The notes beneath the pieces are model-generated. The model was given only the letters and a program-made list of their open reading frames with translations, searched no databases and had not been told where the DNA came from. Source: Escherichia phage vB-Eco-KMB39. Taken from it: DNA of 64,000 nucleotides. Positions 7,097 to 47,619 of this stretch are shown piece by piece. The DNA lies in the sequence record OR539219.1. One strand, written 5' to 3'. A program made the position numbers and the translations under genes. How positions within the stretch are numbered: the first letter of the stretch is position 1; each line of letters begins with the position of its first letter.

Positions 7097-7821
7097 TATA
7101 GTACCTTTAGTGTATTTTTAATTTTAGAAAAAAGTTCTTCAAGAGAACCATCGTTTGTAATTACTAAATCGCCATCACGAATTGGCAATCCAGCTTCTGT
7201 AATATGTGTATCATTGGATTTTTGACCAGGACGAACTACATGAATTACTGTAGCACCCATCGCCCTAGCCGCATCCATTTCATGATCTTGACGGGTATCA
7301 GGAACGATATAATAATCATAACCTGAGTTAAATTTATCAAGATAATCTAAAGCAAATAATTTTACCCAATACATGCGGTCGAAGTTATTAACAATCAAAT
7401 CCGTACCTAGGGCTTGCATCAGACGACGGACTGACCATTGATCTTCAATATTATTTATAACGTCAATAATCTTGTTAAATGCTACGGAATTAACTGATTC
7501 TTGTCCTTCGTCATCAAAAACAAACACACCTTTAATTGGGCTTTTACCGTTAAGATAGCAAAATGCTTGTTCCATAATCGTGATTACTTCTAATTTAGTC
7601 AGATTTAAATTAGTCTCACGATCATAGTCAATTCCTTCAAACTCTTTACGAGTTAAGCAAGGATAGTCAGTGTTTGCTGCAAATACTCCCCATGCATAAG
7701 CCAATGCATCCTTAATAGGACCAGCAAGTTGGTATTTAACTGCAGAATAATTGCTCATGATAAAATCAGCAGTAGTATCTTTTCCACTACGCTTTACACC
7801 GCTTAAAAAGATTAGTTTCAT
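7096..7821 (-). CDS. 1: deoxynucleoside monophosphate kinase gp1
   Basis: Start set to ATG 7821 (MKLIFLSGVKRSGKDT, P-loop GxxxxGK(S/T)); track ORF begins 13 codons upstream; GAGGAG RBS. Confidence 0.9.
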
Positions 7822-7846
7822 GTGTTTCTCCTCAAATTTAATTAAG

Positions 7847-7876
7847 ATTATAACACACAAAACTGAAGCATTAAAC
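7847..7876 (-). promoter_or_regulatory. middle-type promoter candidate: MotA box TGCTTCA plus extended -10 TGtTATAAT
   Basis: Minus strand GTTTAATGCTTCA-N10-TATAAT; MotA-box-like element 11 nt upstream of the -10 hexamer. Confidence 0.4.
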
Positions 7877-8401
7877 TTCTGCTATAATTTTTCCATCTTT
7901 TTCTACTTGAAAATAGGTGTAAGGAATCGTAGCTGTACATACTAAAGCCGGGTCTGAATCTTCTGTGTAGCTAAATTCTACTTCAGACAGGTCAGAAACC
8001 CAAGGCTTATAAAAATTTATTGACATCACGATTTCAGTTTTACTATTATCTAAAATGTAAAGCGTAATGTATTCAGGACCTGTTTTTTGGGCAGTATTTT
8101 CGCCTGTAAGATAGTTACTAGTTCCTAGCATCCATTCATACATTCCTATCCATGACTTAAGCTCTTCATCAACTATAAATCTCACGATGAGTGGGTCGTA
8201 CTCAAATGTAACACCTGGACGTTGTGCTCGGCCTAGTCCAAACGGCCCAGTCACGGTATCAGTAACAGGTATCCTAATTCCCGGAATAGGAACTGACTGA
8301 GCATTTAAAGTAAAAGCAGATGTAGTATTACTATGCGGTATTGATACTACAAAGTTAGTTGTATTTGCTTGGTTAAAAATTTGTTGTAGTGCTTGCGACA
8401 T
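7871..8401 (-). CDS. 3: tail completion / sheath stabiliser protein gp3
   Basis: Start moved to ATG 8401 (MSQALQQIF...); synteny 1-3-2-4. Confidence 0.7.
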   Translation of the reverse strand: MSQALQQIFNQANTTNFVVSIPHSNTTSAFTLNAQSVPIPGIRIPVTDTVTGPFGLGRAQRPGVTFEYDPLIVRFIVDEELKSWIGMYEWMLGTSNYLTGENTAQKTGPEYITLYILDNSKTEIVMSINFYKPWVSDLSEVEFSYTEDSDPALVCTATIPYTYFQVEKDGKIIAEV

Positions 8402-8507
8402 ATATTCCTCATAATGCTTCATAAATGTTGGTGGTATAATGGGTCTAAGTCCCTTCCATTCAATTCCAATTAGAACAAACAACAGAAAAGAATGGAAGAT
8501 AATAGAA

Positions 8508-9167
8508 TTAATTTATTAGACTTCTTAAACGAGCAGAAGTCATAAATGGAAATTTTTCTAAAGTTGGCTTTCGCCAATATCTTGGATGACAAGTTGATTT
8601 AAAATCAAGAACAATTTTCTTTGCTTCATCAATAGTGTTAACTCCAAAGTTATCTAACATTATTTTCTTTTCTTTTTCCCACCGTTTATTAGCTAAAGCA
8701 GATTGAAGCTTTTTGTTTTTAAATGTGTCATTTTTTCTAGAATGAGTTGTGCCTTGTGTCGGACTCCATCCTCTTCCTAAAATAAATCCCTCAGGAATTA
8801 TATCTCCATCATGTAATTTTATACATCTTTTACCATTATTATAATATTTTCGTCCAGTTTGTGTATTTGAAATATTATTTACATGTTTTCTTTTTAACCA
8901 ACCATAAACTTTATTATTTCTCCTAACATATTTAGTTGAAACCGTCATTTTTATGGCTGCATAAGATAATTTTAAAGAATTTGGGTGTATTTTTACTAAT
9001 AGCTGATGTGCAACATAATGCTCTTCTGGAGTTAAATCAACCAAGTTAGAAGCATCATTACTACCGCCTAAACATTTCGGAATAATATGATGTCTTTCTT
9101 TATATCCAGTAAGGGCTCTATTGCGAGCCCTATCAATTAGTGAATTATAAATTTTTTCATAATTCAT
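8508..9167 (-). CDS. HNH homing endonuclease with NUMOD-like C-terminal repeats, inserted between genes 3 and 2
   Basis: Motif [29 protein letters not shown]; ATG 9167 overlaps the gp2 stop (ATGA); paralogue of 46927..47619. Confidence 0.75.
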
Positions 9168-9991
9168 CGTACATTGCTCCAAACTTTGTTTGCAGAGAAA
9201 CGTTTTCCTTTGGAGTAGAAGCTTTGGAGTGGCATCAACACAACGTTCGCCCAGTCTTTCGGGGCGATTTCAACAAGGCTACCCATAATATTACCGGGTA
9301 TATATGCCTTAATCATTTGGTCTGCACCCCTAAATCCTTTCACTTGACTCCAATCAATTTTTAATTTCGTTTTATTAGTAATAGTAGGTGTATTTGAATA
9401 TTGCTTTAAAAGCTCTTCTAGAAATTGCTGACGAGCTTTAGGTGGAATATAGTGCAAGTTTAATCCGTACATTAAATTGTGCTTACCTAAACCAAGGTAA
9501 ATTATCAAAGGAAATTTATCCCAGTAAGGAAGAGTTTCCTTGTGTTTAGCATCATAAGCAAAAGCATATATTCGTCCCGGTTGCGGGCGAACAACTTTAT
9601 GTCCTTTTACTTGCTTAATAGTTTCAGCAAACCACTTTCTGGTTTTATTATTAATTGCTGCACCTTCATTACGAATTTTATCACGCAATGTTTGTCTGAA
9701 TGAATTTATCATAAGCAGTTGTCTTTCTTGCTTATTGAGTTTATTCATTGGTTTTGATTCAAGCTTTTGAATCTTTTCAGCCGTTTTAATTCCTGAAGCA
9801 TATTTTGACATTGCTGAAGTAAACGTAGAGTATTTGATTCCTCTTTCTTCAGCAAATTGCTTTCCTGTCATTCCTTTTGCTTTGGCCTTTTTATATTCAA
9901 GACCTATCTGAATCCATTTCTTTTCGTTTAATGATTGCTTAACCTTTGGAACTTGGGGAGTGCTTTCATTAATTATTTGAAAAATAGCCAT
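9164..9991 (-). CDS. 2: DNA end protector protein gp2
   Basis: 275-aa ORF between genes 3 and 4; assigned by synteny and size. Confidence 0.7.
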
Positions 9992-10443
9992 TATGCCCCC
10001 TTAAAGCCAAGAGCTCGTAATCCATCTTCTGTTAGAATTCTAAATTTTATTCCACGCTTTTCAGCTAAAGATTGTGCTGCTTTCCATTTGTCAGTGTTCA
10101 CAGACCAGGTATAAATTTCATTCATAAATCTTTTCTTCGCTGCGGTTGTTAGATGTGCTGGTTTAACTGGTGGTTGTGTTTCTTTTTTAGGTTTTATTTC
10201 AATAAAAAATTCTTGTCCAGAAGAATCTTTCATCCAAATATCCATGAAGTATCTACGTTTTTTCCCTTCGGCATTACAAAAATAAGGAATTACTGCTGTT
10301 TCACTACCCCATGCAATAATTTCTGGATTTTTATCTAACCATTCAAAAAAGAATTTTTCCCAATTTGATCTATACGTAATTTTTTTAGGGTCACCTCTAT
10401 ATTTTGATATATTTTTAGGAACCCATTTTCCAGAATATGCCAT
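9991..10443 (-). CDS. 4: head completion protein gp4
   Basis: 150-aa ORF divergent from gene 53. Confidence 0.75.
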
Positions 10444-10454
10444 TGGATTCTCCT

Positions 10455-10462
10455 TATAAATA
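10455..10462 (+). promoter_or_regulatory. late promoter TATAAATA for gene 53
   Basis: Exact TATAAATA 28 nt upstream of the gene 53 ATG. Confidence 0.55.
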
Positions 10463-10469
10463 GATAATA

Positions 10470-10477
10470 TATTTATA
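10470..10477 (-). promoter_or_regulatory. late promoter TATAAATA for gene 4
   Basis: Exact TATAAATA on minus strand 26 nt upstream of the gene 4 ATG; crossed with the plus-strand promoter. Confidence 0.5.
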
Positions 10478-10490
10478 AACAGGAGGGCCC

Positions 10491-11081
10491 ATGCTCTTTA
10501 CATTTTTTGATCCGATTGAATATGCGGCCAAAACGGTGAATAAAAACGCGCCGACTATTCCTATGACAGATATTTTTAGAAACTATAAAGACTATTTTAA
10601 ACGCGCTCTTGCGGGATACCGCTTACGTACTTATTATATCAAAGGTTCACCACGCCCGGAAGAATTAGCAAATACTATATATGGAAATCCACAGCTGTAT
10701 TGGGTTTTATTGATGTGTAATGATAATTATGATCCATATTATGGATGGATTACTTCACAAGAAGCAGCTTATCAAGCATCTATACAAAAATACAAAAATG
10801 TAGGTGGAGACCAAATAGTATATCACGTGAATGAGAACGGTGAAAAATTTTATAATTTAATATCATACGATGATAATCCATATGTTTGGTATGATAAAGG
10901 CGATAAAGCTAGAAAATATCCTCAATATGAAGGAGCGCTTGCTGCGGTCGATACGTATGAAGCGGCTGTTCTTGAAAATGAAAAACTTCGTCAAATAAAA
11001 ATAATAGCAAAATCAGACATCAATTCATTTATGAACGACCTTATACGTATAATGGAGAAATCTTATGGAAATGATAAGTAA
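10491..11081 (+). CDS. 53: baseplate wedge protein gp53
   Basis: 196-aa protein recognised as gp53. Confidence 0.85.
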   Translation: MLFTFFDPIEYAAKTVNKNAPTIPMTDIFRNYKDYFKRALAGYRLRTYYIKGSPRPEELANTIYGNPQLYWVLLMCNDNYDPYYGWITSQEAAYQASIQKYKNVGGDQIVYHVNENGEKFYNLISYDDNPYVWYDKGDKARKYPQYEGALAAVDTYEAAVLENEKLRQIKIIAKSDINSFMNDLIRIMEKSYGNDK

Positions 11082-45421: not shown

Positions 45422-46930
45422 ATGGATATTAAAGTACATTTTCACGACTTCAGTCATGTACGCATCGATTGTGAAGAGAGCACGTTCCACGAATTAAGAG
45501 ATTTCTTTTCGTTTGAGGCAGATGGATATAGGTTTAATCCTCGCTTCAGATATGGCAACTGGGATGGACGAATCCGTCTTTTAGATTATAATCGTCTTCT
45601 TCCGTTCGGCTTAGTCGGGCAAATTAAAAAGTTCTGCGATAACTTTGGCTATAAAGCCTGGATTGACCCTCAAATTAATGAAAAAGAAGAATTATCAAGA
45701 AAAGATTTTGATGAATGGCTTTCTAAATTAGAAATCTATTCAGGAAATAAAAGAATTGAACCACACTGGTATCAAAAAGATGCAGTGTTCGAAGGATTAG
45801 TTAATCGTCGCAGAATTCTTAATCTTCCAACATCCGCAGGTAAATCTTTAATTCAAGCTTTGCTTGCACGTTATTATTTGGAAAATTATGAAGGTAAAAT
45901 TCTTATCATTGTTCCAACAACTGCTCTGACAACTCAGATGGCTGATGACTTTGTTGACTATCGTTTATTCAGTCATGCAATGATAAAGAAAATCGGCGGC
46001 GGAGCATCAAAAGATGATAAATATAAAAATGATGCACCAGTCGTCGTTGGTACATGGCAAACTGTAGTTAAACAACCGAAAGAATGGTTCTCACAGTTTG
46101 GAATGATGATGAATGATGAATGTCATCTTGCTACAGGAAAAAGTATTTCATCTATCATATCAGGATTAAATAACTGTATGTTTAAATTTGGTCTATCAGG
46201 TTCATTACGTGATGGCAAAGCCAATATCATGCAGTATGTTGGAATGTTTGGTGAAATATTTAAACCAGTAACGACTTCTAAATTAATGGAAGATGGACAA
46301 GTAACTGAGCTAAAAATTAATAGTATTTTTCTTCGCTATCCCGATGAGTTCACTACTAAATTAAAGGGAAAAACTTACCAAGAAGAAATAAAAATTATTA
46401 CTGGACTCAGTAAAAGAAATAAATGGATTGCTAAATTAGCTATTAAACTTGCACAAAAAGATGAAAACGCTTTTGTCATGTTTAAGCATGTATCACATGG
46501 TAAAGCTATTTTCGATTTAATTAAAAATGAATACGATAAAGTTTATTACGTATCAGGGGAAGTTGATACCGAAACACGCAACGTAATGAAAACCCTAGCT
46601 GAAAACGGTAAAGGAATAATTATAGTAGCTAGTTATGGTGTATTTTCTACTGGTATTTCAGTTAAAAATCTGCATCACGTTGTTTTAGCGCACGGTGTTA
46701 AATCAAAAATCATTGTATTACAAACAATCGGTCGTGTATTACGTAAGCATGGTTCTAAGACAATAGCAACAGTCTGGGATCTTATAGATGACGCGGGCGT
46801 AGTTTCTAAATCAAAAACATCTTCTAAAAAATACTCGCATTTAAACTATCTTTTAAAACATGGACTTGATCGTATTCAGCGTTATGCTGATGAAAAGTTT
46901 AATTATGTGATGAAAGAGGTTAAACTTTGA
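45422..46930 (+). CDS. uvsW: UvsW helicase (SF2, DECH box)
   Basis: 502 aa; Walker A PTSAGKS, DECH at MMMNDECHL. Confidence 0.9.
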   Translation: MDIKVHFHDFSHVRIDCEESTFHELRDFFSFEADGYRFNPRFRYGNWDGRIRLLDYNRLLPFGLVGQIKKFCDNFGYKAWIDPQINEKEELSRKDFDEWLSKLEIYSGNKRIEPHWYQKDAVFEGLVNRRRILNLPTSAGKSLIQALLARYYLENYEGKILIIVPTTALTTQMADDFVDYRLFSHAMIKKIGGGASKDDKYKNDAPVVVGTWQTVVKQPKEWFSQFGMMMNDECHLATGKSISSIISGLNNCMFKFGLSGSLRDGKANIMQYVGMFGEIFKPVTTSKLMEDGQVTELKINSIFLRYPDEFTTKLKGKTYQEEIKIITGLSKRNKWIAKLAIKLAQKDENAFVMFKHVSHGKAIFDLIKNEYDKVYYVSGEVDTETRNVMKTLAENGKGIIIVASYGVFSTGISVKNLHHVVLAHGVKSKIIVLQTIGRVLRKHGSKTIATVWDLIDDAGVVSKSKTSSKKYSHLNYLLKHGLDRIQRYADEKFNYVMKEVKL

Positions 46931-47619
46931 ATTATAAATTAATATATGATAATTTAATTAATAGAGCCCAGAATCGGGCTCGCCTTAATGGATACACTGA
47001 AACACATCATATAATTCCTAGATGTATGGGTGGTACAAATGATAAGTGTAATTTAGTAGAACTAACGGCTGAAGAACATTTTATAGCCCATAAACTTTTA
47101 GCTAAAATTCATCCAAACCATTACGGTATAATTAAAGCTGTTATATGTATGGGGATGAATTCAAATACTCATGAAAGACACGTCAATAAATCTTACGCAT
47201 GGGAACGTCGTAAAATGGCAGAACTTCAATCCGGCGAAGGTAATCCATTTTACGGAAAACACCATACGGAAGAACATAAACAATATATGTCAAAACTCAT
47301 GAAAAGTCGTCCAATTACATGGGGAAATAAAATTAGTAAAACTAAAAGAATGAACCCAACGAAATGGACTGAAGAAGCTAAAAGATTACATTCAATCAAT
47401 CAATCGGGTAAAAATAACGGCATGTATGGAAGGAAACATTCCGCTAAATCTATTCAGAAAATTAAAGATAACATGCCAGATAATTCAGGAGCTAATAACC
47501 CAGCTGCTAAACCTATAGAAGTAAATGGTGTTAAGTATAAATGTATGAAAGATGCTTCTAAAGCTACTGGATTATCAATGTACAAACTAAGAATACTTAG
47601 AAAAACAGTTAATTTATAA
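46927..47619 (+). CDS. HNH homing endonuclease with NUMOD-like repeats, inserted between uvsW and uvsW.1
   Basis: Motif HHIIPRCMGGTNDKCNLVELTAEEHFIAH; apparent TTG start overlapping the uvsW stop (TTGA); paralogue of 8508..9167. Confidence 0.7.
   Translation: MNYKLIYDNLINRAQNRARLNGYTETHHIIPRCMGGTNDKCNLVELTAEEHFIAHKLLAKIHPNHYGIIKAVICMGMNSNTHERHVNKSYAWERRKMAELQSGEGNPFYGKHHTEEHKQYMSKLMKSRPITWGNKISKTKRMNPTKWTEEAKRLHSINQSGKNNGMYGRKHSAKSIQKIKDNMPDNSGANNPAAKPIEVNGVKYKCMKDASKATGLSMYKLRILRKTVNL

Follow-up and report, generated by a model that had tools for sequence, protein, structure and literature searches.

The genome of Escherichia phage vB-Eco-KMB39 (OR539219.1) holds an additional open reading frame (ORF) between genes 3 and 2, which raises the question of what this gene is, how it came to lie there and whether it acts on its neighbours. 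The window analysed here comprises 64,000 nucleotides of this record and is part of a Tequatrovirus (T4-like) genome. In T4, genes 2 and 3 adjoin, as a sequence-only reading of the window had stated, with a 106-bp spacer alone between them. The window keeps the same spacer, and the additional ORF stands directly before it. The sequence-only reading had described the ORF as an inserted HNH homing endonuclease gene with a NUMOD-like part, perhaps coupled in translation to the structural operon and paralogous to a second ORF of the window.

Gene context and insertion point

The ORF of 219 codons plus stop was found at positions 8508-9167, where the earlier reading had placed it; the minus strand, on which it lies, had been omitted there. 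Its extent was taken from the ORF list, the alignment with phages PE37 and RB32 and the match to PHROG 655. On this strand, the gene order is 4 (9991-10443), 2 (9164-9991), the additional ORF, the 106-bp spacer (8402-8507), 3 (7871-8401) and 1. The upstream gene 2, coding for the DNA end protector, was assigned by Pfam Phage_T4_gp2 on homologous genes; it is the presumed target of the endonuclease and the likely source of translational coupling. Gene 3, the downstream gene for the tail completion and sheath stabiliser, was assigned by Pfam Phage_T4_gp19, and its product in the window is 100% identical to annotated gp3 proteins. The ORF list and the sequence showed that the endonuclease ATG (9167-9165) overlaps the gene 2 TGA (9166-9164) in the ATGA at 9164-9167, as had been proposed. 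Overlapping or abutting start and stop codons are kept in divergent orthologous loci.

Alignment with the empty sites of PE37, T4, teqhad and RPN226 placed a net gain of 659 bp precisely on the gene 2 stop codon. Where gene 2 used to stop there is now the stop codon of the endonuclease gene, and apart from this the two kinds of site are collinear base by base. Downstream of the insertion, the spacer is unaltered and without endonuclease-linked polymorphism. A search of positions 7800-10500 for introns and Rfam families yielded no group I or group II intron model and no other Rfam family. As no intron model matches the region, the endonuclease gene is considered free-standing.

Protein family and domain architecture

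The protein matched PHROG 655, 'homing endonuclease', with an E value of 1e-58. Pfam HNH and HNH_5 were matched at E values of 0.003-0.01, which is below the gathering score for the window protein, and the HNH family matched 21 of 23 orthologues. In an alignment of 23 full-length homologues, residues Y22, E24, H26, H27, P30, C32, G35, N41, E49, H50 and H54 were invariant. The orthologue profile aligned the HH...N...H...H motif to McrA (6ghc) and to a group II intron maturase (6me0). The HNH label given earlier is borne out by these matches. Solved relatives were matched by profile through the HNH motifs alone. A solved endonuclease was not identified by direct sequence comparison, as phmmer against the PDB gave a chance match alone (5ukh, E 0.08).

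In tblastn searches against T4, the N-terminal part of the protein matched all five Mob genes: MobB with 45% identity (residues 1-114, E 1e-26), MobA with 49% (1-88), MobD with 53% (1-70), MobE with 62% (1-62) and MobC with 34% (1-128). No match to the T4 Mob genes extended past about residue 128 of the window protein. 

The AlphaFold (AF2) model of the window protein reached a pLDDT of 86.6 and showed three parts. The first is the HNH catalytic core, residues 22-58 (8994-9104, minus strand), delimited by the invariant residues, a modelled strand-strand-helix fold with pLDDT > 90 and the MobA-E matches. It is followed by a linker module of a helix and a beta-hairpin, residues 84-132 (8772-8918, minus strand), seen in the alignment and in the AF2 secondary structure. 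Its pattern NK.YGWL.R.H...G..YYNNG..IKL....PEGF..GR is common to many other mob-like endonucleases. The third part is a C-terminal helical domain, residues 150-219 (8511-8720, minus strand), which is specific to this orthologous group and forms four helices in the model. It is a putative DNA-recognition domain, and a DNA-binding fold is weakly suggested. When collections were scanned with the C-terminal query, most non-orthologous matches covered query residues 1-49 alone. The metagenome scan with the C-terminal alignment returned partial linker-module matches alone and no more orthologues, and the viral-contig scan returned two orthologues, L117 and L118.

The NUMOD-like label did not hold. 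No NUMOD family was detected by Pfam at E values up to 1 in the window protein or its 22 orthologues; the NUMOD3 motif belongs to the paralogue at 46927-47619 instead. The gene was therefore not placed in the NUMOD-containing (I-HmuI-like) class, NUMOD1, NUMOD3 and NUMOD4 motifs all being missing. The Mob family is defined by a common HNH domain fused to a member-specific C-terminal region (PMC2988022, PMC2790892). Every feature of the family that can be read from a sequence was found, and these features place the ORF among the free-standing homing endonuclease genes of the Mob HNH type.

Distribution and decay of the insertion

The earlier reading had proposed a comparison of the 3-2 junction across relatives, with universal presence of the gene speaking against an insertion. 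The 3.5-kb region matched 741 phage records. The ORF matched 37 of them, all between genes 3 and 2, and the 36 full-length copies shared 98.6-99.8% identity. These 37 carrier records represent 33 distinct genomes once RefSeq/GenBank duplicates are removed. A junction survey with a 100-base probe of the gene 2 3' end recovered 510 records. The gene or a remnant was present in 37 of them (about 7%), and about 466 were empty, including T4, T2, RB18, PE37 and others. With this many empty junctions the gene is not universal, and an insertion between genes 3 and 2 is supported.

Some of the copies are decayed. In Shigella phage CT01, a remnant of 57 codons is left after a 486-bp in-frame deletion that takes out the HNH motif. 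The copies of FL23 and FL44 are frameshifted, and the CE1 copy misses 3 nt (one codon). Altogether, three or four of the 37 copies are broken.

Orthologues were also present in other genera. The protein database contained about 2900 relatives, of which roughly two dozen were full-length with 44-64% identity. The comparison of gene neighbourhoods took in nine further lineages, seven of them reached by protein look-up (P0005, P0009, P0010, P0016, P0020, P0022 and P0024) and two by the viral-contig scan (L117 and L118). They include two Kanagawavirus-like contigs, Serratia phages SP1 (P0020) and 4S (P0022), a QL01-like phage and four others. In all nine, the gene follows directly on the 3' end of gene 2. 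Its start overlaps the gene 2 stop as ATGA, TGATG, TAATG or TTGA in 8 of 10 divergent lineages, and another has a 2-nt gap. The locus of L136 has a different gene order, with a gp4-like downstream neighbour instead of gp3. Since this downstream gene is gp4-like, gene 2 rather than gene 3 is regarded as the constant partner.

Apparent horizontal spread in Tequatrovirus

Diversity was calculated from a 5.7-kb alignment of 23 genomes, comprising 8 carriers, 5 empty genomes with the carrier-type form of a gene 2 stretch described below as block A and 10 empty genomes of T4 type. Among carriers, nucleotide diversity was 0.57% in the gene and 1.7-2.3% in the adjacent 270-1400 bp. The gene is thus 3-4 times less diverse than its flanks, and the flank values of the carriers equal those of the whole sample. 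Pairs of carriers differed at 0-8 sites in 652 bp of the gene, at 9-51 sites in 1.4 kb on the gene 3 side and at 8-25 sites in gene 2. Carriers were found in both major flank haplogroups. By flank comparison, RB32 is nearest T4, and CT01 and CE1 are nearest SG1 and Sso113. Within the gene, 7 synonymous and 4 non-synonymous sites were polymorphic. The gene appears to have spread recently and horizontally among T4-like coliphages, presumably by copying itself, along with the final ~60 bases of gene 2, into empty relatives. Recombination among T-even phages is so free that its ordinary course is indistinguishable from homing by sequence alone.

The decayed copies invite another explanation, that the gene is an inactive passenger relic, shuffled by homologous recombination among Tequatrovirus and slowly decaying. 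Besides the visible inactivations, the intense recombination in the region and the low gene frequency of about 7% agree with such a relic. It is at odds with the state of the window ORF, which is intact and has all invariant catalytic and C-terminal residues, and with the mostly synonymous polymorphism (7 vs 4). A diversity 3-4 times below that of the flanks is also unlike a long-resident neutral passenger, and in other genera orthologues of 44-64% identity have retained both the complete domain architecture and the position. A relic is therefore considered improbable.

Polymorphism at the end of gene 2

Alignments of carriers and empty sites identified two recoded stretches within the last 60 bp of gene 2, both on the minus strand. 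Block A (9212-9227) is a recoded stretch that we interpret as a probable immunity polymorphism at or next to the cleavage site. Block B (9168-9182) comprises the recoded last codons of gene 2 and is present in carriers alone. In block A, CAG is changed to AGC (Q to S) and GTT to TAC (V to Y), along with changes at three synonymous sites. The gp2 motif P-L-Q-Q-F-V-S-K-G, which is conserved in distant T4-like phages, is thereby turned into P-L-Q-S-F-Y-S-K-G. Block B gives the carrier ending V W S N V R stop, compared with V W S N I stop in empty sites. In the 23-genome alignment, substitutions fixed between carriers and T4-type empty genomes were confined to 9172-9182, in block B, and 9215-9223, the core of block A; position 8511, which was listed as well, is an artefact of aligning the stop codon.

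Linkage to the gene was complete up to 9227 and gone at 9236, and on the other side it was gone at 8483. Block A was of carrier type in 37 of 37 carriers and of T4 type in none (0/37). Fifteen empty-site genomes, e.g., RPN226, FL12 and SG1, combined a carrier-type block A with a T4-type block B. From the gene-linked blocks, we infer that the enzyme would cut the empty allele at the tail of gene 2 and that this tail would be co-converted. The population pattern of low gene diversity, diverse flanks and a short linked tract is compatible with over-inheritance combined with co-conversion.

A similar tract was observed in Kanagawavirus, where the carriers L075, L073 and Kosakonia phage 305 were compared with the 96%-identical empty phages Entb_45 and Q7622. 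In gene 2, each 60 bp of the first 720 bp contained 0-4 differences, and in the final ~105 bp this figure rose to 8-14. The rise begins in L073 at the same Leu codon as in the window.

At the protein level, the carrier lineages were divided. Five have Q-S-F-[QY], and four have Q-Q-F-[VMF], as in empty sites. The tenth carrier lineage, L136, has a truncated, divergent gene 2 end (Q-Q-A-M), and the empty-site lineage L007 has Q-S-F-Q. A universal Q-S-F signature of carriers was rejected, as it fails in 4 of 10 carrier lineages and the L136 end is truncated and divergent. Because the signature is not universal, the argument for immunity rests on linkage at the DNA level and not on the protein motif.

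These motifs bear on where the enzyme would cut. It might instead recognise the uninterrupted junction of gene 2 stop and spacer, immunity being given by the insertion together with block B and block A being a neutral hitch-hiker. Block A might have come in with the gene as flanking DNA of the donor and be linked still because only 45-60 bp lie between them; over so short a distance close linkage would be no surprise. Recognition of the junction would suit the exact coincidence of the insertion with the gene 2 stop codon, the loss of the empty-site sequence GTCTGGTCAAATATCTAATTC through block B and the insertion, and the Q-Q-F-[VMF] retained at block A in four carrier lineages. Linkage elsewhere decays within 9-25 bp (9236 and 8483), yet block A is present in every one of the 37 carriers. 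The combination of T4-type block A with the gene was never seen, while carrier-type block A without the gene was seen 15 times. Two codons changed at all three positions within a conserved motif are hard to call neutral, and the divergent tract of Kanagawavirus starts at or before the same codons. Moreover, the characterised free-standing endonucleases of T4 target the neighbouring gene and not the insertion point (Table 1, PMC2988022). Recognition of the junction is thus regarded as rather unlikely, and cleavage within the gene 2 tail is preferred.

Expression

A T4 late promoter, TATAAATA, was located upstream of gene 4 (10470-10477, minus strand). No other late promoter lies on this strand from 10500 to 8380, which makes this one the likely source of a 4-2-endonuclease-3 transcript. 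Neither a late promoter nor a terminator-like site was found between genes 2 and 3, and sigma-70-like promoter matches were at chance level (14 found vs 15.3 expected). A promoter or terminator of the endonuclease gene's own was rejected on these grounds. The endonuclease ATG is preceded at a distance of 9 nt by a GGAG Shine-Dalgarno sequence (9177-9180, minus strand). This sequence counts among the differences fixed between carriers and empty sites, and it arises in block B by a change of the gp2 serine codon TCA to AGC. The endonuclease gene is probably transcribed as part of the late 4-2-3 message, as the single late promoter and the lack of a terminator indicate, and its translation is probably coupled to that of gene 2. 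The coupling to the structural operon that had been suggested from the ATGA fits the conserved start/stop overlap together with the sole late promoter upstream of gene 4.

The ribosome-binding site (RBS) offers a further role for the two blocks, which might co-vary as an RNA hairpin that hides the RBS of the endonuclease gene and is melted by ribosomes translating gene 2. Such a hairpin would complement the homing explanation. In the Tequatrovirus carrier allele, CUCCAAA of block A, twice present as ACTCCAAAG, can pair with UUUGGAG, which contains the GGAG. The mean unpaired probability from -16 to +3 was 0.16, compared with 0.47 +/- 0.13 when the upstream sequence was shuffled; 3% of shuffles were as low, and the fold z-score was -2.2. 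RBS-sequestering hairpins are documented for mobE and T4 intron endonucleases (references in PMC2993671, PMC2790892). The nine other carrier lineages showed no comparable predicted sequestration, and after in silico reversion of block A the GGAG was still 85% paired via an alternative stem. In addition, 15 genomes keep block A without block B or the gene. As a conserved feature of the family, the hairpin was rejected, being predicted in the Tequatrovirus allele only. Co-variation as a hairpin is considered rather unlikely, and the RBS hairpin is treated as a minor, lineage-specific possibility.

The position in the operon also suggests that the protein might have been recruited for a phage function, either as a weapon against co-infecting relatives or, like the terminase-associated HNH protein of HK97, as an aid to gp2 or to DNA packaging. 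The gene is embedded in, and appears translationally coupled to, an essential late structural operon beside the DNA end protector. Homing endonucleases can act in T-even marker exclusion (PMC2790892), and domestication of their genes has been discussed (PMC10448857). Against such a recruitment, around 93% of close relatives are without the gene, among them T4, T2 and T6-like phages that make normal virions, and decayed copies are tolerated. The gene is never beside the terminase. The exclusion of competitors is a by-product of homing and not a distinct kind of system. Recruitment is the least probable of the explanations considered and is viewed as very improbable.

Proposed homing mechanism

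The best explanation, which we hold to be likely, is a Mob-type free-standing homing endonuclease gene that is at home in the 3' end of gene 2 and spreads as follows. In the protein, the HNH nuclease at the N-terminus would be joined to a C-terminal region for DNA recognition that is particular to the lineage. The endonuclease gene, with no promoter of its own, would be transcribed late within the message of genes 4, 2 and 3. Ribosomes finishing gene 2 at its UGA would begin anew at the AUG that overlaps it, aided by the GGAG brought into gene 2 by the cassette. In mixed infections, the enzyme would nick or cut the gene 2 allele of the empty-site phage at or near the P-L-Q-Q-F-V codons, roughly 50-65 bp before the gene 2 stop codon. 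Recombination-dependent repair would copy the carrier genome over the break, so that the gene 2 tail is converted and the endonuclease gene gained. The carrier would be immune through the two whole codons rewritten at the cut site. This is the simplest reading of the blocks and follows a pattern established for SegF, SegG and MobE.

A wider version of this explanation is put forward tentatively, with slightly less than even confidence. According to it, the gene is the Tequatrovirus member of an old Mob-type lineage that spans Tequatrovirus, Kanagawavirus, Serratia phages SP1 and 4S, QL01-like phages and others. Each member would travel as a cassette with a rewritten 60-100-bp gene 2 tail and cut at P-L-Q-Q-F-V. 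Self-immunity would have repeatedly forced the change to Q-S-F-Y or Q-S-F-Q, and the empty genomes with block A alone would be scars. If this is true, the gp2 replacements caused by self-immunity hit an essential virion protein at a near-invariant motif, and the empty genomes with the rewritten block alone represent resistant 'scars' of abortive homing.

The 510 near-identical junctions form a natural data set with four states, namely occupied, decayed, empty of T4 type and empty with a carrier-type block. The occupied/empty pairs of other genera serve as replicates, and together they predict the cut site of a Mob endonuclease and six to nine protective bases. If the target prediction holds, a selfish element would be shown to impose amino-acid changes on a conserved structural protein.

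Comparison with known systems

The gene is already known in kind and in instance, because RB32ORF146c (ABI94970.1) has been in GenBank since the RB32 deposit and is annotated as mob-like. It is the same gene in the same place with the same ATGA, at 99.5% nucleotide identity and 218 of 219 identical residues. The differences, A96V and two synonymous changes, are trivial; V96 is private to the window copy, and the seven other aligned Tequatrovirus copies have A. The annotation of RB32ORF146c reads 'putative site-specific intron-like DNA endonuclease; similar to mobB; not conserved from T4 position'. Table 5 of a 2010 review (PMC2993671) gives two mob-like HNH genes for RB32, and RB32ORF146c is presumably one of them. 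The literature searched contained no paper characterising RB32ORF146c or its copies. Copies of at least 98.6% identity were present in RB32, RB33, HY03, vB_EcoM_112, fPS-2, ESh26/30/32, CAM-21 and others; those of RB32, RB33, HY03, fPS-2 and others are annotated as homing endonuclease genes. For the flanks of the window, no record exceeds 98.7% identity. The kind of gene is textbook T4 biology and of little weight as a discovery, its modest value being that of the natural data set described above. The additions made here are the specificity of the lineage for gene 2 and a prediction, open to test, of which bases form the target and which give immunity.

MobA-MobE of T4 resemble the gene of the window in their homologous N-terminal HNH part (34-62%), and they too are free-standing between conserved genes, patchy in distribution and have unrelated C-terminal regions. 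The gene of the window differs from them in its C-terminal domain, its place in a late structural operon, its start/stop overlap and its absence from T4. The insertion site and the presumed target gene also differ, being gene 2 here and gene 39 or nrdB there. Nicking and over-inheritance were shown at the bench for MobE and MobA, while the gene of the window is known from its sequence. To our knowledge, MobE and MobA are the only Mob proteins studied at the bench. As in the case of mobE (PMC2790892), a promoter of the gene's own seems to be missing, and its expression would need transcription from upstream.

Paralogy with the HNH ORF at 46927-47619, between uvsW and uvsW.1, was upheld for the N-terminal 96 residues, which are 56% identical (E 5e-34); the C-terminal parts are unrelated, and the claim fails for them. 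This ORF is likewise free-standing and sporadic (48 of 694 records), its TTG start overlaps the upstream stop, and T4 is without it. It differs in its two NUMOD3 motifs, its unrelated C-terminal half, its site and its strand.

I-HmuI and other NUMOD-type HNH enzymes of phage introns have in common with the window protein the HNH chemistry and the modular design of nuclease and DNA-binding parts. Enzymes of the I-HmuI type are expected to nick and not to make a double-strand cut (PMC2790892). I-HmuI is intron-borne and contains NUMODs, whereas the gene of the window lies outside an intron and its product misses NUMOD1/3/4. Sequence and fold searches of the window protein gave no significant match to I-HmuI. 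The HK97-type terminase-associated HNH proteins do not correspond to this gene, which is absent from about 93% of relatives and has gp2 and gp3 as neighbours.

The GIY-YIG endonucleases SegF and SegG of T4 appear to share with the window gene the logic of cutting a neighbouring essential gene away from the insertion. They are spread by repair with co-conversion, and their carrier alleles have protective polymorphisms (cited in PMC2993671, PMC2988022). Their nuclease is GIY-YIG as opposed to HNH, and their mode of spread is proven experimentally, while the converted tract proposed for the window gene is deduced from population data.

Carrier-type block A in genomes lacking the endonuclease gene

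In genomes that carry the endonuclease gene, block A, the recoded gene 2 stretch at 9212-9227, contains a direct repeat. Two copies of ACTCCAAAG, 14 nt apart, were located on the minus strand at 9203-9232 of the window. Both are complementary to UUUGGAG, which contains the Shine-Dalgarno sequence of the endonuclease gene. Of the eight bases changed in block A, seven fall inside the two copies; the remaining one, the first base of the TAC codon, is immediately 5' of the second copy. The carrier-type block A was also present in 15 empty-site Tequatrovirus genomes without the endonuclease gene and without block B, the recoded last codons of gene 2 (9168-9182). RPN226, SG1, FL12, vB_SsoM_113, EC128 and T4_ev151 are among them, and loci L057, L060, L061, L062 and L063 were compared. 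The flank backgrounds of the 15 genomes were diverse. Such sites, holding block A only, might be explained as scars left by abortive homing, as resistant alleles or as recombinants.

Altered endonuclease copies and unusual gene 2 ends

Several copies of the endonuclease gene were decayed or altered. Shigella phage CT01 retained a remnant of 57 codons (L002, 1501-1674), in which a 486-bp in-frame deletion had removed the HNH motif. A 1-nt frameshift was found in phage FL23 (L068, 1846-2504) and likewise in FL44, and the copy of phage CE1 had a 3-nt deletion (L067, 1848-2504). The most distant full-length homologue was P0024, carried by locus L136. Gene 2 of this locus (700-900) stops early with the divergent tail …PLQQAMINNNKA stop; the endonuclease start lies 25 nt past the gene 2 end, without overlap, and is followed downstream by a gp4-like gene, not gp3. 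At the empty site of L009 (3300-3358), gp2 was extended by about 16 codons and ended in …VWATCLMVMAWTSSGPFYFMD stop. In L010 and L011, which are closely related to L009, the end was …VWARA stop. The extension looks like an indel close to the stop codon.

Related junctions and other mob-like genes

The gene 2/gene 3 junction showed the same occupied/empty polymorphism in Kanagawavirus, where the empty sites of Enterobacter phages Entb_45 and Q7622 (L140, L141) were compared with the carriers L075, L073 and L142 (Kosakonia phage 305). Divergence was limited to the final ~105 bp of gene 2. Among these three carriers, two markedly different forms of the gene 2 tail occurred: L075 and Kosakonia phage 305 had QQF[MV], and L073 had QSFQ.

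The window contains a second Mob-like HNH endonuclease gene, also free-standing (46927-47619, plus strand), which encodes 230 aa with two NUMOD3 motifs. It is flanked by uvsW and uvsW.1 and starts with a TTG that forms a TTGA overlap with the stop codon of uvsW. This gene is sporadic too, being present in about 48 of 694 matching records and absent from T4.

In distant T4-like phages, adjacent junctions of the 53-4-2-3 cluster around gene 2 hold other mob-like HNH genes. The gp4/gp2 junction is occupied in L016 (1611-2159), which was taken as Aeromonas phage 65, and a further such gene is found upstream of gp4 in L009 and L011 (about 1340-1860). For the mob-like HNH family, this cluster appears to be a hot spot.
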